DNA of 64,000 nt, from positions 96,001 through 160,000 of the IMG/VR virus record IMGVR_UViG_3300029928_000001. One strand, written 5' to 3'. The stretch's first letter is position 1; each line of letters begins with the position of its first letter. Below the pieces are notes generated by a model, which made no database searches, was not told the origin of the DNA, and saw only the letters and a list, made by a program, of their open reading frames with translations. Below, piece by piece: positions 40,100 through 58,371 of this stretch. A program made the translations under genes and the position numbers. This DNA comes from a virus. Its lineage: Duplodnaviria > Caudoviricetes.

Positions 40100-43000
40100 T
40101 TAGTTCATAAAGCTCCAATCAGATGCTTTAAAACGTTTTCTTTTCTTTTTATTGTCTTCTTCTTCTTTAATATAATATAAAGCATATTCTACATAATAAA
40201 TATATATTATAGACTATATCTTAATTAAACTGTAATCAGTTTAACCACCACCGCTTCGCATTAAGGAATTTCACCTTAAAGCTACTCCCTTTCGGGATAG
40301 TCGTTGGACTTTCCTTATAATAAAACTATAAGGCTTAGCACAGGATTCTTTATAAGGTTTGCTTTAATTCCCCTATAACATTCCCCGTTAGCAAATAAGT
40401 AAAAACTTATTCACACCCTGCTTTTACAGGTTCAATGGTGAAGCGCCTAAAGAACTTAAACATGAATTTACAATAATCAACTTACGCTCAAGAACAGTAT
40501 CAATCGTAGCATTTTTATACATATTCGTAAGTATTCTTAAAACATCTTGTTGTCCACTTAATCTAAATTGATAAGTAATTTTACTTTTTACATTTTGTTC
40601 TATACTTACTTTGTCTTTTTGACATAATTTACGAATATCTTGTAGAAAATATTTATTACCAGTCCAAGAAATAGTATATCTATTATTATTTTTTGACCAA
40701 GTGATACAACCATCTCCATCAAAAAATCCTCTTAAAAAATCCCAAATATATTCTGAATTAATATTAGGCATACGCAATTCTTCAACATAATTTTTGTTAG
40801 AAACGCATCCCCAAGCAATTAAATCATCATGTAACTAAGAATCTCTAATCGAAAAATCATACATTATACAAGGTTGACTGAAACGATTATCTGTTACTAC
40901 TGAAATTTTATTATTATAAGCTCCTATCGCTTGTTTGAATTTTTCTACATGCTCCTAGTCTTTTAATCCTAAAGCTATGGTATTAGTTTTACTACTAACA
41001 GTTCCATCAGCATACATAAAACCTAACCAATAAGCTTTTTCCGAGCTATCTATATTTGTAAAATAATTAGAGTTTCTTGGATAATTACGGATCTTTTTAT
41101 TAATTATTTCTACATTCATTTTTCGCAATAAGTTTCTAATTGCCTATGGCTAAACATTAAATTCACTAGCTAAACTTTTTAATGTTCGATCTTTATCTAC
41201 ATATTCTTGCTTAATATACTGCTTTTGGTCCTCTGACCAAATGATTGCTCCAGTGCCTTGTTTACGAGCAATAGTGTATAAATCCATATTAAATTCTCCT
41301 TTTCTTTCTTTGACGCAGAAAATTTATCTTTTTTTATTCCTTTGTTTGCTTGTTTAAGAATAATATTTAAACCTTCATTTTCTTCCTTTAGATTTAACAT
41401 TTCTTCTTCTAAGATAGAGGTTAATGTGAATGGACGCAAATATTCAACTCTTTTTTCAGGAGTCATATTTTGTCCAACCTTAGTTCCTAATAATTTAGCT
41501 TTCGCAGTTCGTTCATCTATTAAGAACTTTATTTTTCCAGAAGATAATTGTGTTTGACAGTTAGCATGAGCTTCAGTATTGATTGGCGCAGTTGCTTTAA
41601 TAATATACATTACGTCTTCTTCACATACTTTGCTCTTATACTTCTTATACTCGCCGTCCTTGTCATTCATAACGCCAAAGTCCGGGTATGTTTCATTTGT
41701 ATCTGGATTAATTTGCGGTTTTACCATATAATCAATTAAACCGATGCCTACATTTTTTTATTCCATTTAATTCGCTACATTAAACGCGTTCTCTAATGAA
41801 CTGCTATATATTACTATATAGATTAGACTATATCTTCATTAAAAATGCTTTCCGCTTCCAACTATCAATCGCTTATAGTTGTACTCCCTTTCGGGATAGT
41901 CGTTGAACCTTTTAATTAAAATTTATGTCTTTTGTTAAATATACCCAATTATGTTTATTTTTAATGGCGCCTATAGCGTCTGCGCAAACCCCATATTTTT
42001 CTCCAATTTCTTTTTGAGTATATTTTTTACTTAATAATAATTCAATAATTTCTTTAACATCTTGTTCGGTAAGCTTACTAGCATTATTCTTTTCGCCTTT
42101 TTGATTTTTTAATCCAATTTTATGAGCATGTATAGTATTTTCTTTGCTAGTTACCCACTCTAAATTTGATAAATTATTATTTTGTTTATTACCATCAATA
42201 TGATTTACTTGTAAATTTTCCATATTATCTATTGGATAAAAATTTTCTAAAATTAATCTATGAACAGAATATGTATGTCGTCCGTCTTCAGAAATAAGAC
42301 GCACTTTTTCATACCCATCTTTATCTAAATGCTTTGACAAAATTTTATTAGTTTTTTCACTATATATATTTCCATTTTCTAAAGCATAATAATCATATTT
42401 TAATTTATATTTAGAATTTACAATTAATCTTTTTTCCATAAATTTTTAAACCTCCAAAAAAAGTTTTAATTAACTTGGCTGCTGATTACCCTCAACTTTA
42501 CTTGGTCGGGCTTCCCAGCAATTCAAAAAGTTTTAAATGGGCTAGACATATTAACCCATTACCGTCAATTACAATTCTCTTCGCTTTATATTTATAATAC
42601 AATTTTTTTAACCCTATCGCCTAATCTTCAAAATGCGTGTCTGTCAATGAATAAATATTGACCAAACTTTTTATTGAAGCACCTTGCGGCTGTGGAGTTA
42701 CTTTAAATACTTCTACAACAGTATTGTCTCCCTTACGGCCTACGTCCACCGAAAGAATGTAATAACTACCCTTACCTGAGCGCCCAGAAGCTTCATACTC
42801 AGGTTGTTTTAATATTCTATGCTTATCAAATGTTTCAGCACTAAAGAAAGCATTTTCCGCAGACCCAGCCCATTTCGATTCATATTCACGAGCAAATGAT
42901 GTTTCATTAAATGTACCGTCCATGCGCAAATCATTAACAAAGTTCTTATCAAGCAAATGAACTAAAACAGGTATTTTATAAGTACCACCTAATACCATTG

Positions 43001-45165
43001 CTTTTTGCGGTTTAACAATTTGCCATACGAGAATTTGAATCAATTTATCATAAGGGAATGAGTTTTTGTAGCCGGCAGTTGTTCATCAATTTTCTGTATA
43101 ATACGCTACCATTATACACGTCTTTTAAAGACTGCTATATATTCCTATATAGATAAGACTATCTCTTCACCTTCAGCTTTACCTGCTAAGGGCCCTCCGC
43201 TTCGGTTCGCTTGAACCTACTCCCTTTCGGGATAGTCGTTGAACTTTCTAATAATAATATTATTAGCTTAGCTGCTGATTATCCGTTCTGGACTTTTCAG
43301 CAATTCAAAGGGTTTACTGTTACTAATTTCTTAGTAATGATGCTAACTCTTTTTTTTGTTCAAAAGATAATTTTTGATAATCTAACCAATAATCTTTATA
43401 AGAATCATGTTTTAAAATTGTATATAAACTATTACTACTTCCTATTCGTAATTTTTCTATTAACCAAGTTTTTGGCATAATATTAAATTCTTCATTTACA
43501 TACATCATAAAAACTTGTTCTTGAGTAAATTTTCTTTTAGAAGAATAAACAGTTGTATGACACTTTAAATCATAAAAATTACTTGATTCAAGAAAAATAT
43601 TATATAAATCTTTTTTTTGTTCATCAGACATTTTTTCATACTCTTCAATAATAATTGTATGATTAACTTTACGTTTAATCCGACTAATAGTTGTTCTAGA
43701 TACTCCAAACATATCTGCTAACACTTGACCAGGCTTAGAGCAAAATTCTAATGCAGCACAAATGGAAAAAATATCAGTTTTCGTTAACGTACTTCCACCA
43801 TTAGAAGGTCCAAAATTTCCGCCTTCGTTTTGATTATATCCATTATAATAACTATCATATAATTTTATATAATATTGTTCTTTTTCACTAATTTCTTCTA
43901 CGGTTACCTCTCCCGCATAAATTTCTTCAAAAGAAAAATTTTCTATACCATATATATTGAATTCTTTCTATAAAAAACTATTATCATGTCTATTGCATCT
44001 TAAATCTGTAAAATGTCTATTTCTTCTTCTTCTTATATTATTTGTTAATCCAATATATTTTTTATGATTGATTAAATTTTCAATTTTATAAATATAATAC
44101 ATAAAATTCACCTCTCTTCAATAATATCTAAAAAGAAAGATAAATCAATGTTTCACTTTTGTCCAAAAAATTAACATATAACTGCGACTTGTTTAGTTGC
44201 TCCTCAGGGTGGGTGGTTCCATCCATGCAACGTCGCGACACGTTCATCGTAGGTATAATGACCTGGGAGAGTATATCACCGTCAACACCGACACACTCTT
44301 CAACAACTCCAGCGTGACGACGCTTACCTCTAGACGTCTCTCTTGCGGCAATATTGTCAAAATATGAGCCATTCTTAAACACATATTTTGCGTAATCTTT
44401 ACCTTCAAGAGTTACTCCTTTATTCCAGTTTATTTCTTTTTTGAAGGCCGGTATGAGGTTACATATCTCGTCAACCTTCTCCTTCATAATGCCTGCTGCC
44501 TATTCTTTACCTCCTGAGGTCACGAATAATTTACAACGGGGGTAGAGAACACAACGAATCATCAATATCATCATTGCCAGGAATGATTTGGAATCTTTAT
44601 ATTCTATTAAGCTCGCAAAACTTAATACGTTTATTAAAAAACTGCTTACAATTTCTTGTAAGAATAGACTATTTCACACTTTTATAATAAAAAGTTCCTC
44701 CTTTTCGGTTTAAGGGAATCTCACCCGCCCCATTAACTTGGGCCCTACTCCTATTGCCTCTATTTTTATTCCGAGGAGGCTTCTTTCAGGATAGTCGTTG
44801 AAGTTTCTTAAGCTTACGCTCAAGCTTACCTGCGAATTTCCTTAACTAAATTTTAGTCTTAGGTTCAACGCAATTAAAAGGATTTGTCCAAGATTTTACT
44901 CCATTGGCGCCATTCACGCTCTCGGAAAAACACAATAAACATATTGATGACGCGCCGCCGCGCGCAAAAATACTCGTTGATAAAAATAAAATTTAAAATC
45001 TTGCGGATTTCCAGATTCTAAAAGGAAATCAACAAATTTATCTGGATATTCTCTCCAGAGAGAAATATACTATCGAGCAACTGGAATAATTGCCCGAACA
45101 CGTTCTTCTGATAAACCAATTTTTTTCTTAGAATGAGATAAGTCTAATAAATCTTGGAGTGCCAT
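40100..45165 (-). CDS. terL: Terminase large subunit, 576 aa, 5 exons (44916..45165, 44174..44594, 42554..43083, 41313..41750, 40100..40191)
   Basis: Spliced product restores Walker A (FPRAYSKS), Walker B (VVEE), TTAG, SVDVG, IDGNGLG and KDKFSALEY; exon total 1731 nt = 577 codons. Confidence 0.9.
40192..41312 (-). mobile_element. Group I intron 4 of terL (1121 nt) with LAGLIDADG gene
   Basis: U|...G| junctions; CAACGACTA (R) and GATATAGTC (S) elements. Confidence 0.85.
40424..41287 (-). CDS. LAGLIDADG homing endonuclease, 287 aa
   Basis: YWLGFMYADG and FLRGFFDGDG motifs; AAGGAG RBS; at least four TAGs. Confidence 0.85.
41751..42553 (-). mobile_element. Group I intron 3 of terL (803 nt) with HNH gene
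   Basis: U|...G| junctions; AATTGCTGGGAA (P), AATCAGCAGC (Q), CAACGACTA (R) and GATATAGTC (S). Confidence 0.9.
41912..42439 (-). CDS. HNH homing endonuclease, 175 aa, TAG-free
   Basis: VHRL...VNHIDGNKQNN..NLEW motif and C-terminal HTH. Confidence 0.9.
   Translation of the reverse strand: MEKRLIVNSKYKLKYDYYALENGNIYSEKTNKILSKHLDKDGYEKVRLISEDGRHTYSVHRLILENFYPIDNMENLQVNHIDGNKQNNNLSNLEWVTSKENTIHAHKIGLKNQKGEKNNASKLTEQDVKEIIELLLSKKYTQKEIGEKYGVCADAIGAIKNKHNWVYLTKDINFN
43084..44173 (-). mobile_element. Group I intron 2 of terL (1090 nt) with GIY-YIG gene
   Basis: U|...G| junctions giving YV-TTAG; P/Q/R/S elements at 43150-43310. Confidence 0.88.
43320..44102 (-). CDS. GIY-YIG homing endonuclease, 260 aa
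   Basis: MYYIYKIEN..KKYIG.T...R and GYN motifs; in frame with track ORF 43323..43724 through TAG; ends TAG-TAA. Confidence 0.85.
44595..44915 (-). mobile_element. Group I intron 1 of terL (321 nt), no endonuclease gene
   Basis: Interrupts Walker A (GCG T|AT TCC); CAACGACTA and AAATAGTC P7 strands; terminal G. Confidence 0.85.
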
Positions 45166-46376
45166 TAGAATGTCTCATCCTTACTTTCTTTAATTACTTT
45201 TAAGATTGCCGCATTAGTATCATTTGTTTCATCTTCTAAGAAGTTATTATATTCTTCAAAATCATTATCATTAATCTCTTGATTTTTTATATTATCTAAA
45301 TCTTCTAGTGTTAATTCTTCGTCTTCATCTTCATCTTCTTCCTGTTCCTCTTGACGAGTCATTTCTTTTACGGCATTGTCAATTAAATTACCTAAATTCA
45401 TTTCTTCAGTAACTAAAGAATAAGTATAATCTTTTAAATCTTGTAAAGTTTCATCAACTTTATCATTTGGTTTATCAATATAGAAACGAGGAATAAAACC
45501 TTCAGATTCACATAAAACCACAAGCTCACTAATTGAATCTACAAATTCACCATTTTCTGCTTTGTTCTGCGCAGCAGTGAATTTTCCTGATTTCATCAAC
45601 GTATCATAGACCTTACTCATCTTTTGGAATCCCTCAATATCGCCTAAGTCGATGAGCTGATTCGCCTTCAAGCTAGTCTTACAGATAAGCTTTAAAGTAT
45701 CAATATGACCTGCTGTTTGAATATCATAAGATTCGCACATGTCATTATATAATTGCTCAAGTTTTACCCATTCTTCTGGTTTATAAATTCTACCCCATTT
45801 TAAACGAAGATAAGTTCTATCTTCGTCAGTTAAATCAATATCATCTACAATATCTTGGTCCTGCGGGCTCGGAACCGGCACTTGCGCAGGTTCTGGTCGT
45901 GGTGGCGGCACAATAGGATTAACAGAATCATTAATTGCTTCGGCAATCTCTTGTGCAGAATAACCACGTTCGGCCATTGCAGTTTTCATACGATTAGCTT
46001 CTAATTCTTGAAGGAATTCACTATCTTTCCAACGATAGTCTTTCCATTTTTTTAATTTCATTTTTGCTAAATATCTGCCAACAATAGTTGTGCCAGTTAC
46101 TTTAGAAGGATCTTGTGCGTAATTACGCATAAGCTTGTTCCACTCATCGGGCACGTACGGCACATCAGCCTCTTTAAGAATCCATTTATATGTGTTAGGG
46201 TCCCAATTGTCAACCATCATAGTAATACATTGTTTACATTGATGCAATTTACAATCATTATCTCCATATTTTTCTTCATTATTAGAAGAATAAAACTGGG
46301 TTCCTTTCATTGTTTTATGACAGGTTTCGCAAAAATATTCTTTTTTGTCAGTTTCTGTTTTTGCTAATTTCGCCAA
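45165..46376 (-). CDS. Putative terminase small subunit, 403 aa, with N-terminal CxxC...CxxC zinc finger; TAG-free
   Basis: Intact ORF; TAATG overlap with terL. Confidence 0.65.
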   Translation of the reverse strand: MAKLAKTETDKKEYFCETCHKTMKGTQFYSSNNEEKYGDNDCKLHQCKQCITMMVDNWDPNTYKWILKEADVPYVPDEWNKLMRNYAQDPSKVTGTTIVGRYLAKMKLKKWKDYRWKDSEFLQELEANRMKTAMAERGYSAQEIAEAINDSVNPIVPPPRPEPAQVPVPSPQDQDIVDDIDLTDEDRTYLRLKWGRIYKPEEWVKLEQLYNDMCESYDIQTAGHIDTLKLICKTSLKANQLIDLGDIEGFQKMSKVYDTLMKSGKFTAAQNKAENGEFVDSISELVVLCESEGFIPRFYIDKPNDKVDETLQDLKDYTYSLVTEEMNLGNLIDNAVKEMTRQEEQEEDEDEDEELTLEDLDNIKNQEINDNDFEEYNNFLEDETNDTNAAILKVIKESKDETF

Positions 46377-46387
46377 AAATAATCACC

Positions 46388-47437
46388 TCACTTTTTTTTA
46401 TTACGGCATTTCTTACAGATACTATAATATCCATCTTTACTGGTTTTATTTTTGGAAAAATATTTATTATGGGCTAATTTAATTTGCCCACACTTACTAC
46501 ATTTTTTATAACGTCCACGCGCATAATTAAGATAGTAATTATCAAGCCATTCATCTTCAGCTTGTGATGCAATTAATTTTGGAATTTTATTGCGCCAAAG
46601 ACTTGATATATATTCTACGCTATGTGTTTCTCCAAATTCTTTATTTAACAATTCTTGTATTTCTATATTTTGTAATCCATCAATTTTATATTGAACAATT
46701 TTTTCATATAATGGATAGTCCATAAGCGCAGCTGTACTGGTATTATCAAAGTCTTCCATGAGATGCCAAGTATCACTTGGTAATTGGTCCCATGAATCTT
46801 GTTTTAATTTAGAATAATTGCATAAGATAAAAGAGCATACTCTTTTATCTAATAAACTTATTCCAGAAGGAATAGGAAATTCTTTATCATTAAAATCTTC
46901 TGTCAAATCGGGCAATTCTAAATAATGTTTGCCGCGAGTGAGATTCATTATGCCGATCGGTTTGCGATAAGCAGCTTTTATTACATATTGGTCTTTGCGC
47001 ATCTCTATTAAAGCTCTTTTTATTATATACGCGTCTTTTCCTTCTGCAACTTTTAATTTTTCTTCCCATAAATGTATTGTTTCACGCAATTGTTTTAAAA
47101 AAGGAATTTCATCTATATCTTTCTTTGTTATTGTCACTTTTGGTCTTAAAATCATATGTTTATTTTCAGTCATCATATTATAAATTGCGTCTTCGCCATT
47201 TTCTAGCTAAGAAACAAGACCTTCAAACGATGTTTCATTTTTATTAACTGTAATCATACGATTATCAGTTAAAATTTTTCTTTCTCGTTTTTCTTGTTTT
47301 TCCATACACATAATGAGATAATCTGCTAATATTTCTAAATATTTTTCATTTGGTTCTTCTTCTAATTCATCTAAAATTTTTTTTACTAACTCATTACGCT
47401 CTTCTGGAGTCTATAAAGTATAGTCTAACTTTATCAC
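46388..47437 (-). CDS. Putative transcription regulator, 349 aa (sigma region-4-like HTH plus C-terminal Zn finger)
   Basis: GTG 47437 after AGGAGG; TAG at codons 9 and 77; in frame with track ORF 46388..47176. Confidence 0.65.
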
Positions 47438-47544
47438 TTATAAGCCTCCTTTTTAGTAAATAATAAATTTCGGAACTAGCGTTCCTCCATTTATTATTTA
47501 CTAAATGTGTGGAACTTTTTTCCCATATTTATTACCCTATATAT

Positions 47545-47613
47545 AGTATAACAAAATTTTTTTGTTGTGTCAAAGAATTTTTTATTGATTTTTATAAAAA
47601 TTTTTATTATAAT
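47545..47613. promoter_or_regulatory. Divergent sigmaA-type promoter pair (leftward operon and RF2)
   Basis: Minus: TTGACA-N17-TATACT (47573..47545); plus: TTGATT-N17-TATAAT (47585..47613). Confidence 0.7.
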
Positions 47614-47645
47614 ATATATAGAAAAAGAAAAAGAGGTTAAAAAAT

Positions 47646-48698
47646 ATGGACTTTACTAGTTATGGCTTTAGCCAAAAGGAAGAAGAATTAAAATATTTGC
47701 GCGAAGAGGTGGCAGACCGATGTGCAAGAGGTATATATGACAACGTTGATTTATTGAAGAAGTGTAAGGTACTTGAACATCAACTTTATTATAAAGAGCA
47801 AATTGAAGAATGGGAAAAAGACTTAGCTGTTGTGAATGAGCTTTTGGATGAAGAGCCAGAAGATAAAGGTATGTTAGAAACTAAGTCAAAAGTTGAAAAT
47901 CGATTGCGAAAATTGCGCGAGGACCTTGACACTGAGCTGCTTTTAGACGGGGATTATGATAATGACGATGCCGTTGTGTCGATTCACGCGGGCGAAGGCG
48001 GCACTGAAGCATGCGATTGGGCGGAAATGTTGTATAGAATGTATCAACGGTGGGCGCAATCAAATGGTTATGAAATAGAGGTAATTGATGGATTAAATGG
48101 TAGCGTTGCAGGTATTAAAAATATTGAATTTAAAGTTAAAGGTGTTAATGCTTATGGAATGCTACAAGGTGAAATGGGTGTTCATAGATTGGTTAGGGTA
48201 AGCCCATTTGATGCTAAAGGAAGGCGGCATACAAGCTTTGCGGCAGTTGAAGTTTTGCCGGATTTAGATGATGTGGAGCTTGACGCTGTTATGATAAATC
48301 CGGAGGATTTAGAACAACAAACATTTAGAAGCGGTGGAGCTGGTGGGCAATATCAAAATACGACTGAAAGTGGTGTTAGATTAATTCATAAACCTACTGG
48401 TTTAATTGCGGAGAGTAGAGAAGAGCGCAGTCAACATCAGAATAAAGATAAGTGTTTAAAAAGATTGAAAGCAATGTTGGCTAAGAAGGCTATGGACGAA
48501 AGACTGAAGGAAATTAAAGAGCTGAGAGGAGAACAGCTTTTTAATGAATGGGGCAGTCAGATTAGAAGCTATGTTTTTATGCCTTACCAATTGGTTAAAG
48601 ATGAAAGAACCGGATGTCAGAGTGGGAATATTAATGCTGTGATGGATGGGGATATAAATAAATTTATGAAAGAATATTTATTATGGAGGAAACAATAA
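47646..48698 (+). CDS. prfB: Peptide chain release factor 2, phage-encoded
   Basis: SPF recognition loop (VRVSPFDA..RRHTSF), GGAGGQ, GGTEACDW and RSQHQNK motifs. Confidence 0.95.
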   Translation: MDFTSYGFSQKEEELKYLREEVADRCARGIYDNVDLLKKCKVLEHQLYYKEQIEEWEKDLAVVNELLDEEPEDKGMLETKSKVENRLRKLREDLDTELLLDGDYDNDDAVVSIHAGEGGTEACDWAEMLYRMYQRWAQSNGYEIEVIDGLNGSVAGIKNIEFKVKGVNAYGMLQGEMGVHRLVRVSPFDAKGRRHTSFAAVEVLPDLDDVELDAVMINPEDLEQQTFRSGGAGGQYQNTTESGVRLIHKPTGLIAESREERSQHQNKDKCLKRLKAMLAKKAMDERLKEIKELRGEQLFNEWGSQIRSYVFMPYQLVKDERTGCQSGNINAVMDGDINKFMKEYLLWRKQ

Positions 48699-48799
48699 TG
48701 GGTAGAAGTAAAAGTTTATTTAAAAACGTTTGCGGGAGTATGAGTAGAAAGTATAGTAGAAGAGCAGTTAAAAGTGTTTATGATTTCTTGTGGAAGTAA
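48698..48799 (+). CDS. Small basic peptide, 33 aa
   Basis: TAATG overlap with prfB; GGAGG RBS; MGRSKSLFKNVCGSMSRKYSRRAVKSVYDFLWK. Confidence 0.5.
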   Translation: MGRSKSLFKNVCGSMSRKYSRRAVKSVYDFLWK

Positions 48800-49095
48800 G
48801 AGGTTTATTATCCCTTACTTTTTTTGCGATTATAGAATTTGAGAAACATTTGATAGGAGTTTGTCCCAGGTAATAACCTTTTTCTCTTTCCAAAATAATT
48901 TTTTCCCGTAATACACGCCCCCTTTTTCTCTAACGAGAAAAAGTACAAGCTCTATTGTCGCCTTTCAGGCGCCAAGACCCCACGGGTAAAAATAACACCC
49001 TCCCACAAACTATAATACTTGCTCGCGCCGCTTGCAGACGCAAACGGCGTGCCTTCTATTAATTTACATTCTTACCACTTTTTTCCAAGAGAAAG

Positions 49096-49112
49096 TTGGC
49101 ACGAATCTTGCA
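49096..49112 (+). promoter_or_regulatory. sigma54-type -24/-12 box
   Basis: TTGGCACGAATCTTGCA matches TGGCACG-N4-TTGCW. Confidence 0.6.
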
Positions 49113-49228
49113 TAAGGTCTTCCTGAAATTACCATTGTACTAAATAAAAAACATTGCAAAACCTCTTGACAGACTTGCTCGACTATGCTATACTATAAGT
49201 ACAGTAAAGGAAAGAACGAGGTAAAAAA

Positions 49229-49552
49229 ATGTTAGAAAGAATGAAAGACTGGGCTATTATGTTATTAACTGTAAGTATTATCCTTATCATTGCCGTTGTA
49301 TGCGGTATCATGCAGACCGCAGACGCTGACACAACGACACGCACAATGGAAGCAACTGCCATTGCCAAAACTTACCATGAACAAGGCGATTACACTTCTA
49401 TGACCTTCCGCACAAGCGATGGCAATGAGTGGACGTATGACTATACAGTATGTCCTATTGGTGCAAAGTGTACTATTACCTTTGATACACAAGGCACAAG
49501 CACGGTAGAGGATGACATTATTACAAACATCATGTGTGAGTTGGCAGAGTAA
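49229..49552 (+). CDS. Membrane-anchored hypothetical protein, 107 aa
   Basis: Own promoter and GAGGT RBS; hydrophobic N-terminus. Confidence 0.8.
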   Translation: MLERMKDWAIMLLTVSIILIIAVVCGIMQTADADTTTRTMEATAIAKTYHEQGDYTSMTFRTSDGNEWTYDYTVCPIGAKCTITFDTQGTSTVEDDIITNIMCELAE

Positions 49553-49640
49553 AAAATCTGCCAACTCTTGAAAAAGCTATTGACAACATCAACATTCTAT
49601 GTTATACTATAGATACAGCAAAGGAAAAGAGGTAAACAAA

Positions 49641-49796
49641 ATGAAAAAGTTTTTAAGCAATGCAATTACTACAGTATCTGCTATCTTTGTCGCTTGGTTT
49701 GTACTCTCATGGCTTGAGGTATGTTGCAAGAACACAGCACCAGACCCACAGTATTCACCATTAAACTTATTAGTAATTTTATTAGAAAACGCTTGA
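49641..49796 (+). CDS. Small membrane protein, 51 aa
   Basis: GAGGT RBS before ATG 49641; own promoter. Confidence 0.75.
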   Translation: MKKFLSNAITTVSAIFVAWFVLSWLEVCCKNTAPDPQYSPLNLLVILLENA

Positions 49797-49877
49797 CAAA
49801 CACATCGATAAACCTATTGACAACTTGCCTTGCTTATGGTATACTTTAAATACAGTAAGGAAAGAGAGGTAAACAAA

Positions 49878-50084
49878 ATGAGAACTATTTGTTACAAATT
49901 GGACACACCAATTATTTATAATAAAGGTACAAAGTACGAAAAACATTTAGATACATTCTTAGATAAATACATTGCTGGAACAGATGAAGAGATTCAAGCA
50001 ATCATCGACGAAATGAACCAAAAGGCAAAAGATAGAGTGTATTTTATGGACGAACAGTCGATGTTCGACACTACAGGAAATTAA
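49878..50084 (+). CDS. Hypothetical protein, 68 aa
   Basis: GAGGT RBS; own promoter. Confidence 0.75.
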   Translation: MRTICYKLDTPIIYNKGTKYEKHLDTFLDKYIAGTDEEIQAIIDEMNQKAKDRVYFMDEQSMFDTTGN

Positions 50085-50153
50085 AAAAAGATATTGACAA
50101 AGTATTAAAAGTATGGTATAGTAAAGATACAAAAAAAGAAAGAGGTAAATAAA

Positions 50154-50432
50154 ATGTTGACAAAAGTAACAGTAAAGAAAATGAATAATGAAGTATATAT
50201 TAACTTAACAGACCATTCAGACAGTGTATACAAAAATACTCTATGGATTGTAGCAGACTTGGTAAAATTAGGATATAATTTTATAGAAATAATTCCGTAT
50301 GGAGTTATCAGAGTCAATACAAATGATTATAAAGGTGTGACCTTTGGGGTTCAAAAATGGTTAAAAGAAAATGAGATTATTGAAAATATAAAATTAGATA
50401 CAGAATATACAACATTTAATTTATTAGATTAA
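50154..50432 (+). CDS. Hypothetical protein, 92 aa
   Basis: GAGGT RBS; own promoter. Confidence 0.75.
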   Translation: MLTKVTVKKMNNEVYINLTDHSDSVYKNTLWIVADLVKLGYNFIEIIPYGVIRVNTNDYKGVTFGVQKWLKENEIIENIKLDTEYTTFNLLD

Positions 50433-50507
50433 AAAAAACTTATTGACAAATTAAAAAAAGTATGTTATAATAAATTATAATCAAAAAGGAAATGAGGTAA
50501 AAGAAAA

Positions 50508-50720
50508 ATGTTAGAAATGATTTTATTACTGGTTACGGCTTGCGGTTTGATTATGTGGACGGTACACAAAGACCGCAAGAAAGCAAATTGGTTTTATGTA
50601 GTTGACAATTTAAGCATTGATGTTTGCCGCAAGTTTTCCGACTTGGCAACAGCTCAAGAGATGTATAACTTGTGTGTGGCAGACGGGCATGAGGTTTATT
50701 TAAAGAGATTAAGGGGCTAA
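50508..50720 (+). CDS. Membrane-anchored hypothetical protein, 70 aa
   Basis: GAGGT RBS; own promoter; hydrophobic N-terminus. Confidence 0.75.
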   Translation: MLEMILLLVTACGLIMWTVHKDRKKANWFYVVDNLSIDVCRKFSDLATAQEMYNLCVADGHEVYLKRLRG

Positions 50721-50734
50721 AGCCCCTTAGGTGT

Positions 50735-50777
50735 GAGGGTAACGGCATTCTATGGCGGTTCAATTCCGTCAACCCTC
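50735..50777 (+). ncRNA. tRNA-like minihelix (acceptor stem and T-arm only)
   Basis: GAGGGT...GGCGG-TTCAATT-CCGTC-A-ACCCTC. Confidence 0.45.
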
Positions 50778-50977
50778 TGTTTTACCTCTTGTGGACATGG
50801 AGCGAGTCCTCAGACGCTCCTCTCCTTTTAGCAAACACATGTTCATTTTTTATACCTCTTAAAAAGGATTGGAATTTATTTCCAGTCCTTTTTTCTTTGC
50901 GCCGGCGGCGCGCCCACGGTTGCAGGGCGCGTTTTTTTCAGATATTTCCAATGCTACCACTTTTTTACAGTGTAAAG

Positions 50978-51033
50978 TTGGCACGAATCTTGCATGGTCG
51001 CTTCCTGAATTTACCATTGGCACGATTCTTGCA
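50978..51033 (+). promoter_or_regulatory. Two tandem sigma54-type -24/-12 boxes
   Basis: TTGGCACGAATCTTGCA (50978) and TTGGCACGATTCTTGCA (51017). Confidence 0.6.
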
Positions 51034-51155
51034 AGGTCCTCGGGCTGGCAAGATCTGGAAGAAAAATTTTTTTTATTTTTTTATCGAAAACCCCTTGACA
51101 GGTTCGCTGTTCTGTGGTATACTTTAGATACAGTAAAGGAAAGAGGTAAACAAAA

Positions 51156-51614
51156 ATGACAAAGACAACATTCTTAAAACATTACAATTCGTTTTCAGCA
51201 GCTCATAACTACTTGGTATTCTTCTTATATAAGAAAAATCTGTATATGGCAGAATGTGGAAAAATCCAGCCAAGATGGGTAGTAGAAAACTATGAAACAT
51301 ATGGACACACACAGAAATACATGATTTCTCTGAAAAACCAACATAAAGAACAGTTAATCCGCAAAGGCGCAAAGCTGTTAATGACAGAATCCGAATTTAT
51401 GGCAATAGATGTACCAAACAGGGGTAGAAAATGTGAAAAGTGGCTACATGAGACTACTAACCAAGACGGCGTATATAAATATGATACAGTACCATTCAAT
51501 ATTGATGGCGATATTACAATCAATGGAATTAAATACCAAGTAAAATTCCAAAACGCAAGTCTTGCGAATGTAAGAACGATTGAAAAATTAAAGAAAGAGA
51601 GAAGAGGAAAATGA
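51156..51614 (+). CDS. Hypothetical protein, 152 aa (possible nuclease-like fold)
   Basis: RBS and promoter; GD...YQVK motif is only suggestive. Confidence 0.75.
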   Translation: MTKTTFLKHYNSFSAAHNYLVFFLYKKNLYMAECGKIQPRWVVENYETYGHTQKYMISLKNQHKEQLIRKGAKLLMTESEFMAIDVPNRGRKCEKWLHETTNQDGVYKYDTVPFNIDGDITINGIKYQVKFQNASLANVRTIEKLKKERRGK

Positions 51615-51715
51615 AAAGTCGGTGGAAAAATTCCACCGACAAAATAAAGAAAAACTATTGACAGAGTGGAAAAAAGATGCTATAATAAAGAAAAGATAAA
51701 GAGAGGTAAGAAAAA

Positions 51716-52162
51716 ATGAAAAAAACAATTTGGTTTGATCTTGACGGTACACTTGTTAATTTATACGGCGTGCAAGACTGGTTGCCTATGATTCAGGCAT
51801 ACGACCCAACACCGTACGCTGTAGCAAAGCCACTTGTAAGATTCAGTCATTTAGCAAGATTGCTAAATATGCTCCAAGGGCAAGGCTACAATATCGGCAT
51901 TATCTCTTGGTTAGCAAAGAATAGCACCGCCGAATATGACGGACTGGTAGCGGAAACCAAAAGAGCATATTTAAGAAAGCACCTGCCGAGCGTACGATTT
52001 GATGCAATCAATATTGTGCCTTATGGAACATTAAAAGATACTTTTAATAATGGTTTTGACTTTCTCTTTGATGATGAAGAACAAAACAGAGAAAATTGGA
52101 CTGGTGAAGCATATGACGCAAAAGATTTAATTGCGGTTTTACAAGAAATGGTAAGGGGGTAA
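51716..52162 (+). CDS. HAD-superfamily phosphatase (5'(3')-nucleotidase-like)
   Basis: FDLDGT motif I, IISW motif II and LFDD motif IV. Confidence 0.85.
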   Translation: MKKTIWFDLDGTLVNLYGVQDWLPMIQAYDPTPYAVAKPLVRFSHLARLLNMLQGQGYNIGIISWLAKNSTAEYDGLVAETKRAYLRKHLPSVRFDAINIVPYGTLKDTFNNGFDFLFDDEEQNRENWTGEAYDAKDLIAVLQEMVRG

Positions 52163-52193
52163 GAGTGGATATACATCCACTCTTTTTTATATA

Positions 52194-52210
52194 TGCAAAA
52201 ATCATGCCAA
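52194..52210 (-). promoter_or_regulatory. sigma54-type -24/-12 box
   Basis: TTGGCATGATTTTTGCA on the minus strand. Confidence 0.55.
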
Positions 52211-52389
52211 CTCGACAGCGGCCGGCCCACGGATGCGGGGGCCGGTTTTCCATTATACCACAACTCTACACACTTTGTCAAGCGAAAATTAATAAAAAAA
52301 ATAAAAAAACTTTTTTCCTAAAACCCCTTGACAAACCGGTGTCCTTGTGTTATACTATAACTACAGTAAGGAAAGAAAGAGGTAACAAA

Positions 52390-52530
52390 ATGAAAGTATT
52401 CGTAGTATACAATTCGTTAAATCTTCCAGTTTTAACCACTGAAGACGAGTCCCTTGCAGACTGGACCGCCGCTTTTGAAGGTGGTTACTTTGTCGAGAAA
52501 TTTGACAAAAATTACCACTTGACATGGTAA
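52390..52530 (+). CDS. Small hypothetical protein, 46 aa
   Basis: GAGGT RBS; own promoter. Confidence 0.65.
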   Translation: MKVFVVYNSLNLPVLTTEDESLADWTAAFEGGYFVEKFDKNYHLTW

Positions 52531-52576
52531 TCATTCTATGTTATAATAAGGTATAAACAAAAAGGAGATTGATAAA

Positions 52577-53320
52577 ATGAAAGAATTATTTATGACCATT
52601 GACACAGAAACCACAAACTCACTTGATGACCCATTGTGCTATGATGTTGGCGGTTGTATCCATGATGAACACGGCAAGGTATACAAGACATTTTCTTATG
52701 TAGTGTATGAGATTTTTTTCCAAGAGTTGGAATTAATGAAAACAAGTTACTTTGCTGAAAAGATTCCGCAGTATTTAGAAGAAATTGAAAACGGCACAAG
52801 AGTTGTGGCAAGATTTTCCACAATCAAAAAAAGAATTGCTGAAATGTGCAAAAAGTACAATGTTCAAGCCATCATTGCTCACAATGCAAGATTTGATTAT
52901 AAGTCTTTGTCAACAACACAGAGGTTTTTAACTTCTTCCAAGTATAGGTATTTTCTTCCTTATGGTATTCCAGTTTATGATACTCTGAAAATGGCAAGAA
53001 ATACCATTGTTAAGACAGAAGAATACAAAGTATTTTGTAAGAAACATGGTTTTGTGGCAAAAAATGGAAATCCAAGAGCAACAGCGGAAGTTCTTTACAG
53101 ATTCTTAACAAATGATTTAGACTTTGTGGAAGAGCACACAGGCTTACAAGACACTTTAATTGAAAAGGAAATTTTTGTAAAGTGCTTACAGATTGACCCT
53201 AATGTGGAAAAAAATTGCTTTACACCAAAAATCTATTGTACTTGCGGTTGCCCTTGTTCCATGGCACGCATTAACGGCACTTGCAAGAAAACTGACAATA
53301 AATGTAAGTGGGGGTTTTAG
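52577..53320 (+). CDS. DEDDh 3'-5' exonuclease (DnaQ-like)
   Basis: IDTET, AHNARFD and HTGLQD motifs; ends TAG. Confidence 0.85.
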   Translation: MKELFMTIDTETTNSLDDPLCYDVGGCIHDEHGKVYKTFSYVVYEIFFQELELMKTSYFAEKIPQYLEEIENGTRVVARFSTIKKRIAEMCKKYNVQAIIAHNARFDYKSLSTTQRFLTSSKYRYFLPYGIPVYDTLKMARNTIVKTEEYKVFCKKHGFVAKNGNPRATAEVLYRFLTNDLDFVEEHTGLQDTLIEKEIFVKCLQIDPNVEKNCFTPKIYCTCGCPCSMARINGTCKKTDNKCKWGF

Positions 53321-53345
53321 CCCCCGCTTAGAAAGGTGGTAAAAA

Positions 53346-53558
53346 ATGGATTTACAAAAAGCGTATGAAATGGTATTTAATGATATGACAGGAAGAGGTT
53401 CCAGCTTTTTCCAAGGAAATTATGATAGTAAAAATGGCAACAAAGAATTTATGTATGGTATTCTTACAGTAATGGAATTTATTTCCTATGAAGTAGGAGT
53501 GGAAGATTTTGACAATGTATTTATAAAAAATATGGTAAAAAGTGAAGAAAAGGCTTGA
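53346..53558 (+). CDS. Hypothetical protein, 70 aa
   Basis: AAGGTGG RBS. Confidence 0.7.
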   Translation: MDLQKAYEMVFNDMTGRGSSFFQGNYDSKNGNKEFMYGILTVMEFISYEVGVEDFDNVFIKNMVKSEEKA

Positions 53559-53963
53559 CATCAAGCCCTTTTTGTGGTATAATGGGTGCCCCGCGCACGG
53601 CTGAGGGCGCGGGTTTTTCATTATACCACATTTGCACCCATTTTGTCAAGAGAAAAATGCGAAAAAAATAAAAAAACTTTTTTTCCTAAAACCCTTGACA
53701 AAATGGGTGTATGGGTGTATACTATAAGAGTACTAAGGGTTAAGGCAAACGGCAAGCCTAAGAAAAACTTGAAAAAAGTTAAAAAAGTACTTGACAAATT
53801 ACTTAACCTGTGGTATACTTAAAGAGTAGTAAGGGTTAAGGCAACAAAGCCAAAGTTAAAAAAGTTAAAAAAACCTCTTGACAAACTGCCGAATCCATGC
53901 TATAATAAGATATAAGATAAACCAAAGGGGTTGTGACCTACCACAAGAAAGAGAGTTGATACT

Positions 53964-54320
53964 ATGGAAAAGAAAATGACTAAAAAAGAAATGTTCGCCG
54001 CTATTATTGCAAAGTATGACCTGACCACAGATGAAGTGGAATTCCTCAACCATGAGATTGAACTTTTGGAGAGAAAAGCGGGCAAAGACCGCAAACCAAC
54101 AGCTAACCAGTTGGTAAATGCTGGAATTAAAGAGGAAATTGTTTCCATTCTCACAGGAGCGGAACGCATGACTTGCACAGAGATTGCTAAGGCTCTTCAG
54201 CCGTCCCACACAGAGGATATCTCCGTGAACAAGGTTTCCGCTCTGATGAAACAGCTTATTGAAGCTGGAAAGGTTGTAAAGACCGTTGAAAAGAGAAAGT
54301 CCTATTTCTCTGTAGCTTAA
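53964..54320 (+). CDS. Winged-helix DNA-binding protein (paralog of 56507..56869)
   Basis: MTCTEIAKAL...VSALMKQLIEAGKV. Confidence 0.8.
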   Translation: MEKKMTKKEMFAAIIAKYDLTTDEVEFLNHEIELLERKAGKDRKPTANQLVNAGIKEEIVSILTGAERMTCTEIAKALQPSHTEDISVNKVSALMKQLIEAGKVVKTVEKRKSYFSVA

Positions 54321-54376
54321 TTCCAAAGGCGGGGGAATAAATCCCCCGCCAATAAAAAAGAAAGAGGTGGTAAAAA

Positions 54377-54607
54377 ATGCCAATGAATTTTGAAATCAAA
54401 GTTGAAAAACAAGACAGTTTATCCCAAGAAGAAAATAACATTATTCGTGCTTTACAGATTTTACAAGATGTTTGTTCAAGTCATGATAACTGTAGAATTG
54501 TTTGCCCATTATGGAGCATGGAACTGGAAGAATGTGTAATATCTTATTGCACCAATCCATTAGACATAGACATCAACCCATGCCGAACTTTTAGGGCGGT
54601 AAAATAA
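54377..54607 (+). CDS. Cys-rich hypothetical protein, 76 aa
   Basis: GAGGTGG RBS. Confidence 0.7.
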   Translation: MPMNFEIKVEKQDSLSQEENNIIRALQILQDVCSSHDNCRIVCPLWSMELEECVISYCTNPLDIDINPCRTFRAVK

Positions 54608-54668
54608 TCCGCCTATTGACTTTTATAATTTATTATGTTATAATAAATTATAAAGAAAAATAAAGGAG

Positions 54669-55058
54669 TTGATACCTATGGCAAAACCTACCAGAGAACA
54701 CATTGAAAAGTTGATGAAAAATCTTGATTTGACGGAAGAAGAAGCACTGGAACTTATTGCCAGTGATGATGAGGTAGACCACATGAAAGCAAGTGCTGTC
54801 AATGATGATTTAACAGACGCCCAAAAGAAAGCAAGCAAGAAAGCCCGTTCAAGTGGTAAGACCACCGTCGGCAAAACTAAAGTAGTTAAAGAGAAAAAGA
54901 TTGATGATGACAAAGTTTTCCTTGTAAAAACTTTCCAGTCGCTCTTGGAAAATCTTAACAATACAGAAAATGTAAATGTTGAGAATGAGCAAAAAATTAT
55001 TACATTTAATTACAATGGAAGAAAATTCAAGATTGACTTGTCAGCACCAAGAAAGTAA
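54669..55058 (+). CDS. Hypothetical protein (paralog of 56900..57256)
   Basis: AAGGAG RBS and promoter; shares LT.EQKK and E..I.F..NG..(F/Y).I.L...RK with the paralog. Confidence 0.8.
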   Translation: MIPMAKPTREHIEKLMKNLDLTEEEALELIASDDEVDHMKASAVNDDLTDAQKKASKKARSSGKTTVGKTKVVKEKKIDDDKVFLVKTFQSLLENLNNTENVNVENEQKIITFNYNGRKFKIDLSAPRK

Positions 55059-55310
55059 AATTTAGACAGGAATTAAATTCCTGCCTATTTTTTCCATAGT
55101 TTTTGGAAAACTCTGTCAGTCTTGGGAGAAATTTCCAGGCGGCCGCCCGCTCTCGAATGAGGCGGGCAGTTTTCCACATTTTTACAGTATTGGCACAATT
55201 TTTCAACCAAAAGAACATGAAAAAATTTTAAAGAAATTTGCCCGAAACCCCTTGACACGGTACGCAATTCATGTTATAATAAGGTATACCAAGAGGAAAG
55301 GAGAAAGAAC

Positions 55311-55526
55311 ATGGAAAAGGTAATGATTTACACTTTAGAACCTGTTGACGCATTTACATTTAATTACTTTTATGGGGTAGCTACTACCATGAGAGAAAAA
55401 GTAAAGAATTTATCTTCTATTATTGAAGATGTAAAGTTTAACTATGAAGATGATGAAGAATTAACTGTCTACTGGGCAGACGGCACAAGCACAGATTATT
55501 TTATTCAAGAAAAGGAGTTGATTTAA
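55311..55526 (+). CDS. Hypothetical protein, 71 aa
   Basis: RBS and own promoter. Confidence 0.7.
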   Translation: MEKVMIYTLEPVDAFTFNYFYGVATTMREKVKNLSSIIEDVKFNYEDDEELTVYWADGTSTDYFIQEKELI

Positions 55527-55528
55527 TA

Positions 55529-56017
55529 ATGAATAATTTTATTATCTTTTTTACACTTTTAACACTTGCCAATGTTATTATCCAAACGGTAAAATCACTT
55601 GTCACCATTAAAGGGGGCAAGTGGACGGCGGCAACGGTCAACGCAATAACTTTTGCACTTTATACCTATGTTATTTTCTTCACTGCCGTTGAGGGTATTG
55701 CCCTTTGGCAAAAGGCTTTAATCACTGGATTATGTAACTTTGCGGGAGTGCTTGCCGTGAAGTGGCTTGAAGAGAAAACCGCAAAAGACAAACTTTGGAT
55801 TTATAACTGTACTGCCAAAGTGGACGGCACAGAAATCAAAAAAATTGCAGAATTGCTTAAGGAAATGAACATTTCATTGACTTATAATGAATTAAAAGAT
55901 GAATTGTTTACAATGAGTATTTACTCATACACACAAAAAGAATCTGAAATGATTAAAAGTGTATTAGAAAATTATGATGTAAAATATTGTGTAATTGAAA
56001 CAAAGGGGGTAAAATAA
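55529..56017 (+). CDS. Membrane protein, 162 aa (three hydrophobic segments plus a soluble C-terminal domain)
   Basis: Hydrophobicity pattern; resembles DUF5698/DUF2179-type proteins (inference). Confidence 0.75.
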   Translation: MNNFIIFFTLLTLANVIIQTVKSLVTIKGGKWTAATVNAITFALYTYVIFFTAVEGIALWQKALITGLCNFAGVLAVKWLEEKTAKDKLWIYNCTAKVDGTEIKKIAELLKEMNISLTYNELKDELFTMSIYSYTQKESEMIKSVLENYDVKYCVIETKGVK

Positions 56018-56229
56018 TGGAAATTAGAGTTGTAAAAAATAATTATAGACCATTTAGAGAAGTAGCGACAGGAGAAGTGTTCTTGTATAACAATGAACAC
56101 TACATGCGGACAGAGAGTTATGGCGGTTGGGGTATCAATGCTGTGAATTTATTCACAGGTGAGTTGATTACCTTAAATCAAGCTGATAGTGTAATTCTTG
56201 AAGATAACTGTTATTTAGCTATTGAATAA
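56017..56229 (+). CDS. Hypothetical protein, 70 aa
   Basis: TAATG coupling to the previous gene. Confidence 0.75.
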   Translation: MEIRVVKNNYRPFREVATGEVFLYNNEHYMRTESYGGWGINAVNLFTGELITLNQADSVILEDNCYLAIE

Positions 56230-56506
56230 ACAAGAGCCTGGATTTTTCCAGGCTTTTCCAGTCTCTCGAGGGCCCTTCCAGAAATTTACAGAAACTTTTT
56301 TAGAAAACCTCTTGACAGGATAGCCCCATTATGTTATACTATAATTGTTCCAAGGAAGAGAATAAAAAGTGAGCAAATAAGCTCAAAGAAAAAAATAAAA
56401 AAAGTTTGAAAAACCCTTGACAACAACAACTGAATATGTTATAATAAGGTATAAGTTAAAGAAAGGGTACCGCCACCTAAGAGCGGAGAAAGAGAAGTGG
56501 TAAATT

Positions 56507-56869
56507 ATGGAAAAGAAAATGACTAAAAAGGAAATGTTTGCACAGATTATCAGAAACTACAATCTGACAACAGAGGAAGTAGACTTCCTTAACCATGAGA
56601 TTGAATTGTTAGCAAGAAAAGCTGGCAAGGATAGAAAGCCAACTGCTAATCAGTTAGCTAACCAGTCCTTAAAGGCTGAAATGTTGGCACTTATGGAAGA
56701 TAACAGACTGTACACTTGTACAGAGTTATCCAAGGAGTTACAGAAAACTCATGTTGAGGATATTTCTGTAAATAAGACTTCCGCATTACTTACACAGTTA
56801 GTCACAGAGGGTTCTGTAGAAAAAACTGTAGAGAAAAGAAAGTCTTACTTCTCCAAGGTTTTAGGTTAG
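56507..56869 (+). CDS. Winged-helix DNA-binding protein (paralog of 53964..54320)
   Basis: Identical MEKKMTKKEMFA start and KTVEKRKSYFS end; TAG stop. Confidence 0.8.
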   Translation: MEKKMTKKEMFAQIIRNYNLTTEEVDFLNHEIELLARKAGKDRKPTANQLANQSLKAEMLALMEDNRLYTCTELSKELQKTHVEDISVNKTSALLTQLVTEGSVEKTVEKRKSYFSKVLG

Positions 56870-56899
56870 GCTCATGCCTAACCTAAAGGGGGCAAGCCT

Positions 56900-57256
56900 A
56901 TGACCCAAAAGGAAAAGTTAATAAAGTTAGGTATGACCGAGTCAGAGGCGGACAATGTTCTTGCCTCTGACCGTCAAATTGATAAAATGACCCGCATGGC
57001 TGACATCAATTCAGATTTGACTGATGAACAAAAAAAGGTAGTAAAACAATCAAAAAATGTTAAAAATTATACCAAAACGGCAAGAAAACCAAAAGAAAAG
57101 GTTGAAAATGCGGAAAAAGTAGAGATAATTGCGCAAATAGCTGACTGTTTGATGCCTATAGTTGACTGTTTAAGCGTGGAAAATGCCGAAAGGGTGATAA
57201 AATTTACAAAAAACGGGCAAAATTATTCAATTACACTAACAAAACATAGGAAATAG
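56900..57256 (+). CDS. Hypothetical protein (paralog of 54669..55058)
   Basis: Ends RK-TAG, followed directly by a terminator. Confidence 0.8.
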   Translation: MTQKEKLIKLGMTESEADNVLASDRQIDKMTRMADINSDLTDEQKKVVKQSKNVKNYTKTARKPKEKVENAEKVEIIAQIADCLMPIVDCLSVENAERVIKFTKNGQNYSITLTKHRK

Positions 57257-57452
57257 GGGAGAAATCCTCTATTTTTATTTTGGCTCGCCGCTCACTGAAG
57301 CGAGAGGCGAGAGTTTTCATTTATGGTATCTCTTACCAATTTTGGCAAATAAAAACTGGAAATTACTTCTATTAAATTTTTTCCTAAAATCTATTGACAA
57401 TTTGCGCAAGCTATGCTATACTATAGATACAGTAAAGAGAGGAGATAAAAAA

Positions 57453-57644
57453 ATGGATAAAAGATTTTATGAATTAAACAAAGAAGAGATGCAAGAAATG
57501 AGAAATACTCTGTGGGATGCATTCATGGAGCAGTTAAAAGATTGGATTCCTAATTATGAATGGGAAGAACTGGAAGAACTTCCAATGTCTGAACAAGATG
57601 AAATTTTAGAGAATTTAATGAATAAAGTTAAAAAAGATTTATAA
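57453..57644 (+). CDS. Acidic hypothetical protein, 63 aa
   Basis: GAGGAG RBS; own promoter. Confidence 0.75.
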   Translation: MDKRFYELNKEEMQEMRNTLWDAFMEQLKDWIPNYEWEELEELPMSEQDEILENLMNKVKKDL

Positions 57645-57700
57645 AAACCTGTTGACAAAGTATTATACTGTTAGTATAATAAAAAAAGGAGAATAGAAAA

Positions 57701-57907
57701 ATGGATAAAAAATATTATAACAAGCCAACGCAAGTAAAATTTTATGATGTAGACAATGATTTGTGGGTAGGCGGTATTGCTTACCATGATGAAATTATTT
57801 GCGGATGTTGTGGCGGTATTCAAAAAATTAGTGAGCTTAAGGAAGATGAAATTATTGAGTATACTTATTGGGTAAATATTAGTGATGAAATTAAAGGAGA
57901 CTGGTAG
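57701..57907 (+). CDS. Hypothetical protein, 68 aa (ICGCCGG motif)
   Basis: AAGGAG RBS; own promoter; TAG stop inside the terminator stem GGTAGGCT/AGCCTACC. Confidence 0.75.
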   Translation: MDKKYYNKPTQVKFYDVDNDLWVGGIAYHDEIICGCCGGIQKISELKEDEIIEYTYWVNISDEIKGDW

Positions 57908-58371
57908 GCTGGAAAAGCCTACCATTTTTTTTATGTCCATTTGGCGGGTCGCCCTCGGAGGGGGAGACCCGTAATCCCCTCCCTCACCTCATATGGCAAT
58001 TTTTTCTGGTGAAAGTCGACCCCGCATATGCGCCTCTTCATTCCCGAAACTTTGCTACACAAGAGAGGGACCCCCAGCCCTGCGGGCCGAGAATGAATTA
58101 TCCAAAGGCGCCCCCATATGGGCGCCCAGAGAGTGTAAAGCGTTTCTTTATTTGAAAAATTTAAAAAAATATGTTATAATTAAAAAAACGGCATTTTTAA
58201 GCCGCGAGACACAAAAAAAAGTAGGTAATTAACCTACCTTTTATCTATTTGCCACGATTTTGGGCTTTGACAAGCCCAAATGAGAAAATATTCAGCCCAT
58301 TATTTTTAATGGGAATAGACGGCCATCTAGCTTTTCTACGGATAGCAAAGTTAATAAGGAAGTGAGAGCTT

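Follow-up and report, generated by a model that had tools for sequence, protein, structure and literature searches.

We analyzed a 64,000-nt stretch (hereinafter the window) of the caudoviral record IMGVR_UViG_3300029928_000001, a single phage contig of 178,419 bp and 31% GC whose bases 96001-160000 make up the window. Our focus is a pair of divergently oriented genes separated by a 208-bp gap: a leftward gene, here called gene A, with its product protein A, and a rightward gene for release factor 2 (RF2). A first-pass annotation of the sequence had proposed the pair as a candidate control locus, in which a change in the meaning of TAG codons would itself trigger the passage from early to late genes. 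The explanation toward which we lean is plainer: the locus would be a junction of early and late genes in a TAG-recoded phage, RF2 an accessory gene acquired at the divergent promoter region by a single sub-lineage, and the TAGs of gene A ordinary members of a genome-wide late-gene recoding, with no dedicated gate. The features that carry the argument are as follows, in window coordinates:

46388..47437, minus strand: gene A, 349 amino acids (aa), GTG start, assigned to phrog_5767 (which bears a 'sigma factor' label), with TAG needed as glutamine (Gln)
47411-47413, minus strand: in-frame TAG at codon 9 of gene A; the column in 67 relatives holds E in 39, D in 8, T in 7, Q in 6 and TAG in 2
47207-47209, minus strand: in-frame TAG at codon 77 of gene A; the column holds Q in 41 and TAG in 18
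47545..47573, minus strand: predicted sigmaA-type promoter of gene A, TTGACA (47573-47568), 17 nt, TGnTATACT (to 47545); an 11/12 match with an extended -10
47585..47613, plus strand: predicted sigmaA-type promoter of RF2, TTGATT (47585-47590), 17 nt, TATAAT (47608-47613); a 10/12 match
47646..48698, plus strand: RF2 gene (prfB), 350 aa, a single open reading frame (ORF) from ATG to TAA, without TAG

Divergent host-type promoters between early and late genes

Judged by its sequence, the product of the rightward gene is a bona fide bacterial class I release factor RF2. It scores 398 bits against the TIGR00020 prfB model (cut-off 370) and only 232-241 bits against RF1 models, under their cut-offs; it contains the PCRF (PF03462, E 1e-49) and RF-1 (PF00472, E 6e-32) domains, and its SPF (VSPFDA) and GGQ (SGGAGGQ) motifs are both invariant across an alignment of 18 homologues. 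With this identity backed by TIGR00020, the first-pass description of a TAG-free RF2 also holds good (0 TAG among 17 Gln-type codons). A programmed +1 frameshift site at an in-frame UGA was not found in the gene, which is one uninterrupted 350-codon ORF; such a frameshift is typical of bacterial prfB, not defining.

The two back-to-back sigmaA-type promoters that had been proposed for the gap are both present as sites, with their -35 boxes 11 nt apart, and the -10 of the RF2 promoter ends 32 nt 5' of the ATG. The count of promoter-like sites in the region is no higher than in shuffled sequences (16 versus 13.9 +/- 4.0). A genome-wide scan at a threshold of at least an 11/12 match to the sigmaA consensus recovered about 25 TTGACA-17-TG-TATA(A/C)T sites clustered at window 47545-58180 (genome 143.5-154.2 kb), mostly on the plus strand and for the most part 20-60 nt before small ORFs of unknown function; the gene A promoter is of this same class. 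In this, the stretch resembles early regions of the host-takeover type, where each gene has a promoter of its own. The same scan gave no match on the late strand inside the leftward block that gene A opens. A second divergent pair lies just past the window end (genome 161031, minus, and 161105, plus), where a TTGAAA-17-TATAAT site faces a 12/12 early promoter and heads another TAG-rich leftward block, one with a tail protein among its products.

Among relatives, a near-consensus host-type site occurs 21-64 nt before the gene A orthologue in almost every one of about 60 distinct upstream regions, in recoded and standard-code phages alike; transcription of gene A by the host sigmaA polymerase is accordingly well supported as a prediction from sequence. 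The first-pass claim that the host polymerase can serve both genes finds support for gene A, with its family-wide promoter, and less firmly for RF2, whose promoter is weaker and has a 12/12 counterpart with TG in the nearest IMG/VR relative (locus L003), back to back with that of gene A.

Leftward of the gap, gene A opens a block of long virion genes (genome 143,437 to 74,143) in which TAG serves as a sense codon. TAG occurs in 36 of its 43 genes and 233 times in frame, at a TAG/(Gln+TAG) ratio of 0.26. The second gene of the operon begins 11 nt on and is followed directly by terL:

45165..46376, minus strand: phrog_3314 gene, 403 aa, zinc ribbon at the N-terminus, acidic tail; abuts terL exon 1

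Over the genome, plus-strand genes are largely free of TAG, with a TAG/(Gln+TAG) ratio of 0.06, and the two leftward blocks reach 0.26-0.39. Four early plus-strand genes stop at TAG (window 53320, 56869 and 57256; genome 147127) and become 3-16 residues longer once TAG is taken as Gln, which suggests that TAG still terminates translation at early times of infection. ARAGORN detected an array of 10 tRNAs at genome 7.5-10.2 kb that includes a tRNA(CUA) at 9907-9978, presumably charged with Gln; this suppressor tRNA array sits behind TTGAAA-17-TG-TATAAT sites.

Amber codons and RF2 across the phage family

Translated under table 11, the frame of gene A yields just a 262-aa ORF; with TAG as sense it opens into the 349-aa frame, preceded by AAGGAGG 7 nt 5' of the GTG start. 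Columns 98, 116 and 261 of the family alignment are glutamine/TAG columns similar to column 77, and since the TAG columns of gene A are mostly glutamine columns, the meaning of TAG is fixed as Gln. Two of the more specific first-pass observations are borne out here, namely that gene A heads the leftward block and carries TAG at codons 9 and 77, and that its full-length product exists only where TAG is read as sense. Its TAG load (2 of 12 Gln-type codons) is ordinary among the late genes.

For comparison we collected 80 IMG/VR loci with gene A relatives, which fall into 36 lineages at 90% protein identity. The gene A orthologue has 1-7 in-frame TAGs in 29 of the 36 lineages, i.e., in 29 of the approximately 31 recoded ones, and the positions shift from lineage to lineage; TAG is missing from gene A in two or three apparently recoded lineages, and two clear standard-code clades lack TAG in gene A and in its neighbors and keep both gene and promoter. 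At the same loci, TAG density in gene A is like that of the phrog_3314 gene and terL. Conservation of the early TAG in relatives, which the first-pass annotation had put forward as a check, did not emerge: position 9 is TAG solely in the window and in a distant, unrelated locus (L011), having arisen twice independently, and position 77 turned to TAG in three separate clades. L003 has E at position 9, Q at position 77 and seven TAGs elsewhere in the gene. A 95%-identical database protein (P0004) has Q at position 77 and is called from M43, which suggests a stop further upstream in its gene. On these alignments, gene A appears to be amber-dependent throughout the recoded family without a position-specific gate, its glutamine-tolerant sites probably changing to and fro between CAA/CAG and TAG. 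In the gene A tree the standard-code relatives (L005, L006, L013 and L014) form a clade nested among recoded lineages, so the code would have been gained or lost more than once within the family.

RF2 has a far narrower distribution. Within 4 kb upstream of gene A it occurs only in L003 and L004, divergently and across a 109-bp gap, and L037 has a partial copy farther from gene A. Searches of whole records found RF2 among the relatives in the L003 genome only, and in none of six complete or nearly complete recoded relatives or two standard-code ones. RF2-based locus searches returned no close relatives in IMG/VR, and in metagenomes a single 3.6-kb contig fragment. Since complete recoded relatives lack it, RF2 is dispensable for recoding in this family; and because, among the IMG/VR loci, it adjoins gene A only in L003/L004, the pair is no conserved control module.

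Predicted fold and possible roles of protein A

Protein A matches phrog_5767 at E 5e-47, a family that PHROGs places under transcription regulation. Homologues with 41% identity occur in the Enterococcus phages EF1, VRE9 and H1, in each case leading the same series of genes, and the family as a whole numbers more than 6,600 database hits (1,222 representatives at 50% identity), whose database cluster names refer to the zinc ribbon only. We built an AlphaFold 2 model from 76 diverse homologues (predicted local distance difference test score, 87). In the model, residues 1-100 form a helical N-terminal domain and residues 105-157 a long hairpin; a disordered linker leads on to a second helical domain (198-306) and a terminal ribbon whose cysteines (C313, C316, C341 and C344) are invariant. 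Residues 203-302 resemble sigma region 3-4 or 4 of WhiG, SigH, SigB, BldN, SigK, SigD and SigW (Z 6.3-7.1), and 7 of the 11 fold matches over residues 200-300 are sigma factors; the same residues tie with a small terminase helix-turn-helix (HTH; Z 8.1), a LuxR-type regulator and an archaeal factor, all of these scores (Z 6.3-8.1) lying in the range where a common arrangement may explain a match.

The N-terminal domain alone has no PDB match above Z 4.8; Foldseek against PDB with the whole model or with that domain gave nothing below E 0.1; and BFVD returned just unannotated relatives and zinc-ribbon matches. By sequence, comparison with Pfam, NCBIfam and PDB recovered neither a regulator or sigma family nor a terminase family, and a search for longer fused forms gave one likely chimeric call only. 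Pfam sigma domains (regions 2 and 4) are absent from the 76 family members, sigma region 2 (PF04542) was not found in the whole phage genome, and hhalign of the family profile against E. coli RpoE, FliA and RpoH gave a probability of 0.3%. We do not file protein A as a sigma factor, given that no region 2 and no Pfam sigma domain was found, and given the hhalign result and the tied fold matches. Weak sigma region-4 matches elsewhere in the phage proved to be generic HTH proteins, and a search for a T7-type polymerase found none in the phage and none in control genomes either, which makes it uninformative.

Protein A is, on the strength of this model, a predicted DNA-binding protein that combines a sigma4/LuxR-type HTH with a Cys4 zinc ribbon. 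The HTH/zinc-finger half of the first-pass description is in keeping with the predicted structure and the invariant cysteines, and a regulatory role in late transcription is putative; structure prediction, which had been suggested as a check, did return a DNA-binding fold, but one that matches a small terminase as well. Whether protein A acts as a late transcription factor we regard as an even call, with a DNA-recognition protein for packaging as the main alternative.

Small terminases typically have an N-terminal HTH followed by central oligomerization helices, and are encoded beside terL. We consider it unlikely on balance that protein A is such a packaging component, either small-terminase-like itself or a partner of the phrog_3314 product, with its TAGs merely marking a late gene. 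The gap-free order of gene A, phrog_3314 and terL is fixed in the 80 relatives, a recognizable small terminase is missing, and the best single HTH match is the small terminase of phage G20C (PDB 4xvn; Z 8.1, root mean square deviation 2.1 A over 52 residues), which has the same HTH type. A helical N-terminal domain followed by a long helical hairpin recalls the small-terminase layout, similar Cys4 ribbons close the gene A product and open that of phrog_3314, and the Pfam and hhalign searches without a sigma signal fit this reading too. However, the terminase-like HTH lies near the C-terminus (residues 241-294) instead of the N-terminus, so that the domain order differs from that of the G20C protein; a zinc ribbon is added; 349 aa is large for a small terminase; gene A lies upstream of terL but at a remove of one gene, with phrog_3314 abutting terL. 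The unmatched N-terminal domain and the PHROGs grouping under transcription regulation also speak against it.

A proposed code switch and the timing of late genes

Under the early-late junction reading that we prefer, the locus would work as a passive device. Leftward, the family-conserved host-type promoter would drive gene A, phrog_3314, terL and the remaining virion genes; rightward, the lineage-specific, standard-code RF2 gene would open an array of about 10 kb of small early genes behind strong host-type promoters. Host RNA polymerase would probably make gene A mRNA from early on, and the suppressor tRNA would likewise be transcribed early from its own host-type promoters. Host RF1 would truncate protein A at codon 9 until that tRNA accumulates, and protein A, like the products of the 36 TAG-bearing late genes, would appear once the phage suppressor tRNA outcompetes host RF1, the net effect being a passive feed-forward delay with the logic of an AND gate. 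Since terL is co-transcribed with gene A and the late genes have TAGs of their own, protein A is not needed to explain their delay, and the packaging genes at least need no A-dependent promoter. The first-pass proposal that the code change acts through gene A as the early-to-late trigger is not borne out on these points: the other late genes are TAG-gated themselves, and the first of them share its transcript.

Several observations nevertheless weigh against this preferred reading. Other contigs of about 170 kb encode RF2 proteins with 69-90% identity, and the RF2-gene A pairing may be wider than IMG/VR shows. TAG falls in the first 32 codons of gene A in 17 of 29 lineages against 8.2 expected (Fisher p=0.005), and in nearly all recoded lineages the gene has kept one TAG or more; the retention and the N-terminal excess could reflect selection for a gate. 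The excess rests, however, on column 20, which is common to three clades, and p rises to 0.36 once that column is removed. Across the late genes of the phage, a 5' bias of the first TAG is marginal (8 within 10 codons versus about 4 expected, p 0.02-0.06) and sensitive to start-codon calls.

These same data bear on a stronger proposal, that protein A is a master late activator (sigma-like or an antiterminator), its ambers a selected gate and its pairing with RF2 a dedicated code-switch locus that triggers the late program; we judge this improbable. It would accommodate the conserved host-type promoter before gene A, the recurrence of back-to-back promoters in L003, the TAGs in all but a few recoded lineages together with their N-terminal excess, the sigma4-like domain with its majority of sigma factors among the fold matches, and the want of a strong sigmaA promoter inside the 64-kb late block. 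A rare motif that is not of the sigmaA type can be added to these. It reads GGNCAA-N25-(C/T)TTTANAT (GGNCAA-N25-TTTTATAT) and has three late-strand copies (1581-1619, 44126-44164 and 59172-59210, all minus), each preceding a TAG-bearing gene, and a fourth, plus-strand copy outside the window, close to the end of the genome; four copies in all against 0.09 expected genome-wide are non-random, and two of them share GGACAAAAGT. The motif may represent a second promoter type. As a candidate late promoter tied to protein A it was rejected, there being only 3-4 copies with no link to that protein. In 25 late intergenic regions, 7-mer enrichment recovered the ribosome-binding site only and no late promoter consensus.

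Set against the stronger proposal are the unconserved TAG positions, position 9 having arisen twice; the dependence of the N-terminal excess on a single column; the six complete recoded relatives without RF2; the standard-code relatives with the same gene and promoter and no TAG; the co-transcription of terL; and protein A, in which no sigma region 2 was found and which has no profile similarity to sigma factors. We give as little credence to a related reading, in which protein A would serve in late transcription or antitermination and be licensed by the suppressor tRNA. The code switch would then act both ahead of late transcription and on each late protein, as a translational-to-transcriptional relay for which at least one amber, preferentially 5', is kept by selection throughout this family of 170-200-kb gut phages. 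Hardly credible is the notion that the TAGs are real stops, leaving gene A broken or split into separate short products and the 349-aa frame an artefact: the short table 11 ORF and the truncated database calls (P0008, P0004) would fit it, but homology to full-length standard-code orthologues runs unbroken over both TAGs, a strong Shine-Dalgarno sequence and start precede codon 1, the phage encodes a tRNA(CUA), and the late block is full of in-frame TAGs.

Phage late-transcription factors include the sigma-like SPO1 gp33/gp34 and T4 gp55, as well as activators with a zinc finger and antiterminators, for example P2 Ogr and lambda/phage 21 Q. Like these, protein A would be a small protein directed at DNA or polymerase, made ahead of the late genes from a gene at the early/late boundary, with a predicted sigma4-like HTH and a Cys4 zinc site; unlike them, it shows no sigma similarity in sequence or profile, and neither a region 2 nor a late promoter class tied to it was found.

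The closest precedent for the locus as a whole is the work of Borges et al. (bioRxiv 10.1101/2021.08.26.457843; Nat Microbiol 2022) on gut phages, which proposed a code switch in mid-infection with recoding as a gate on late genes, and which described RF2 in the TAG-recoded Lak and Agate phages and a standard-code 'code change operon' in Jade phages. As in those phages, structural and late genes use TAG for Gln and early genes remain compatible with the standard code; suppressor tRNA and RF2 are phage-encoded, the genes of the recoding machinery themselves keep to the standard code, and recoding is proposed to delay late functions at the level of translation. The gate on late genes, phage RF2 and the standard-code 'code change' genes are all already published there, and the present locus contributes one more gene. 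Points of difference are that the present phage belongs to another lineage of 170-200 kb, distantly akin to the Enterococcus phages EF1 and VRE9; that RF2 is dispensable in most of its relatives; and that the recoded set includes a host-promoter-driven predicted DNA-binding protein heading the late block, a case not taken up in that paper, where the word 'sigma' never occurs. Among the papers searched, none links recoding to a phage regulator or sigma-like gene. If the code switch did control a late transcription factor, a reassigned codon would time a whole transcriptional program, and the published correlative model would become a defined two-gene circuit. The locus adds, in any case, a well-resolved example from a large and abundant family of gut phages, the dispensability of RF2 for amber recoding in such a family, and a widespread, uncharacterized family of predicted DNA-binding proteins, found in every case at the head of the packaging and virion block, after a host-type promoter.

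A synthetic analog is the suppressor-tRNA feed-forward loop engineered in E. coli (PMC7969014), which removes leaky expression. By its logic, which the phage locus would share, one input yields both a suppressor tRNA and an amber-bearing mRNA, with protein made only when both are present; unlike the engineered circuit, the arrangement in the phage would be a natural one, proposed from sequence, with both elements behind constitutive-looking host-type promoters.

Two further features flank the gene pair:

47452..47505, minus strand: long hairpin in the gene A leader, 54 nt, with a 17-bp lower stem and a 5-bp apical stem
48698..48799, plus strand: ORF for a strongly basic 33-aa product, overlapping the RF2 stop (TAATG), with its own GGAGG and followed by a hairpin and T-run

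The gene A leader is unusually long (about 108 nt) compared with those of relatives, which measure 21-64 nt and have no hairpin. The hairpin has a minimum free energy of -28 kcal/mol (z -5.3) and holds a TAG triplet in its apical loop; an Rfam search of 46000-51000 matched no family to it or to anything else in that interval. The ORF for the basic 33-aa product was not found 3' of RF2 in L003. Farther rightward, ARAGORN reported an 88-nt tRNA-Phe(aaa) at window 50691-50778 (plus strand), for which Rfam gave no tRNA at E<=1 in 46000-51000; the call is probably false, or else marks a tRNA-like element.

On the leftward side, the phrog_3314 gene is TAG-free in this phage (0 of 18 Gln-type codons, a chance of about 0.004 at the late-gene rate), whereas its orthologues in recoded relatives have 2-15 TAGs. 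Hairpins 3' of its stop were considered as terminators and set aside, as their positions fall inside terL exon 1. The terL gene (window 40103-45165, minus strand), uninterrupted in relatives, lies here in five collinear pieces corresponding to aa 1-84, 86-236, 226-402, 402-547 and 549-577 of a relative's 577-aa TerL. Of the four intervening insertions of about 0.3-1.1 kb, one contains a GIY-YIG homing endonuclease ORF (43320-44111) and two others contain ORFs of 175 and 287 aa.

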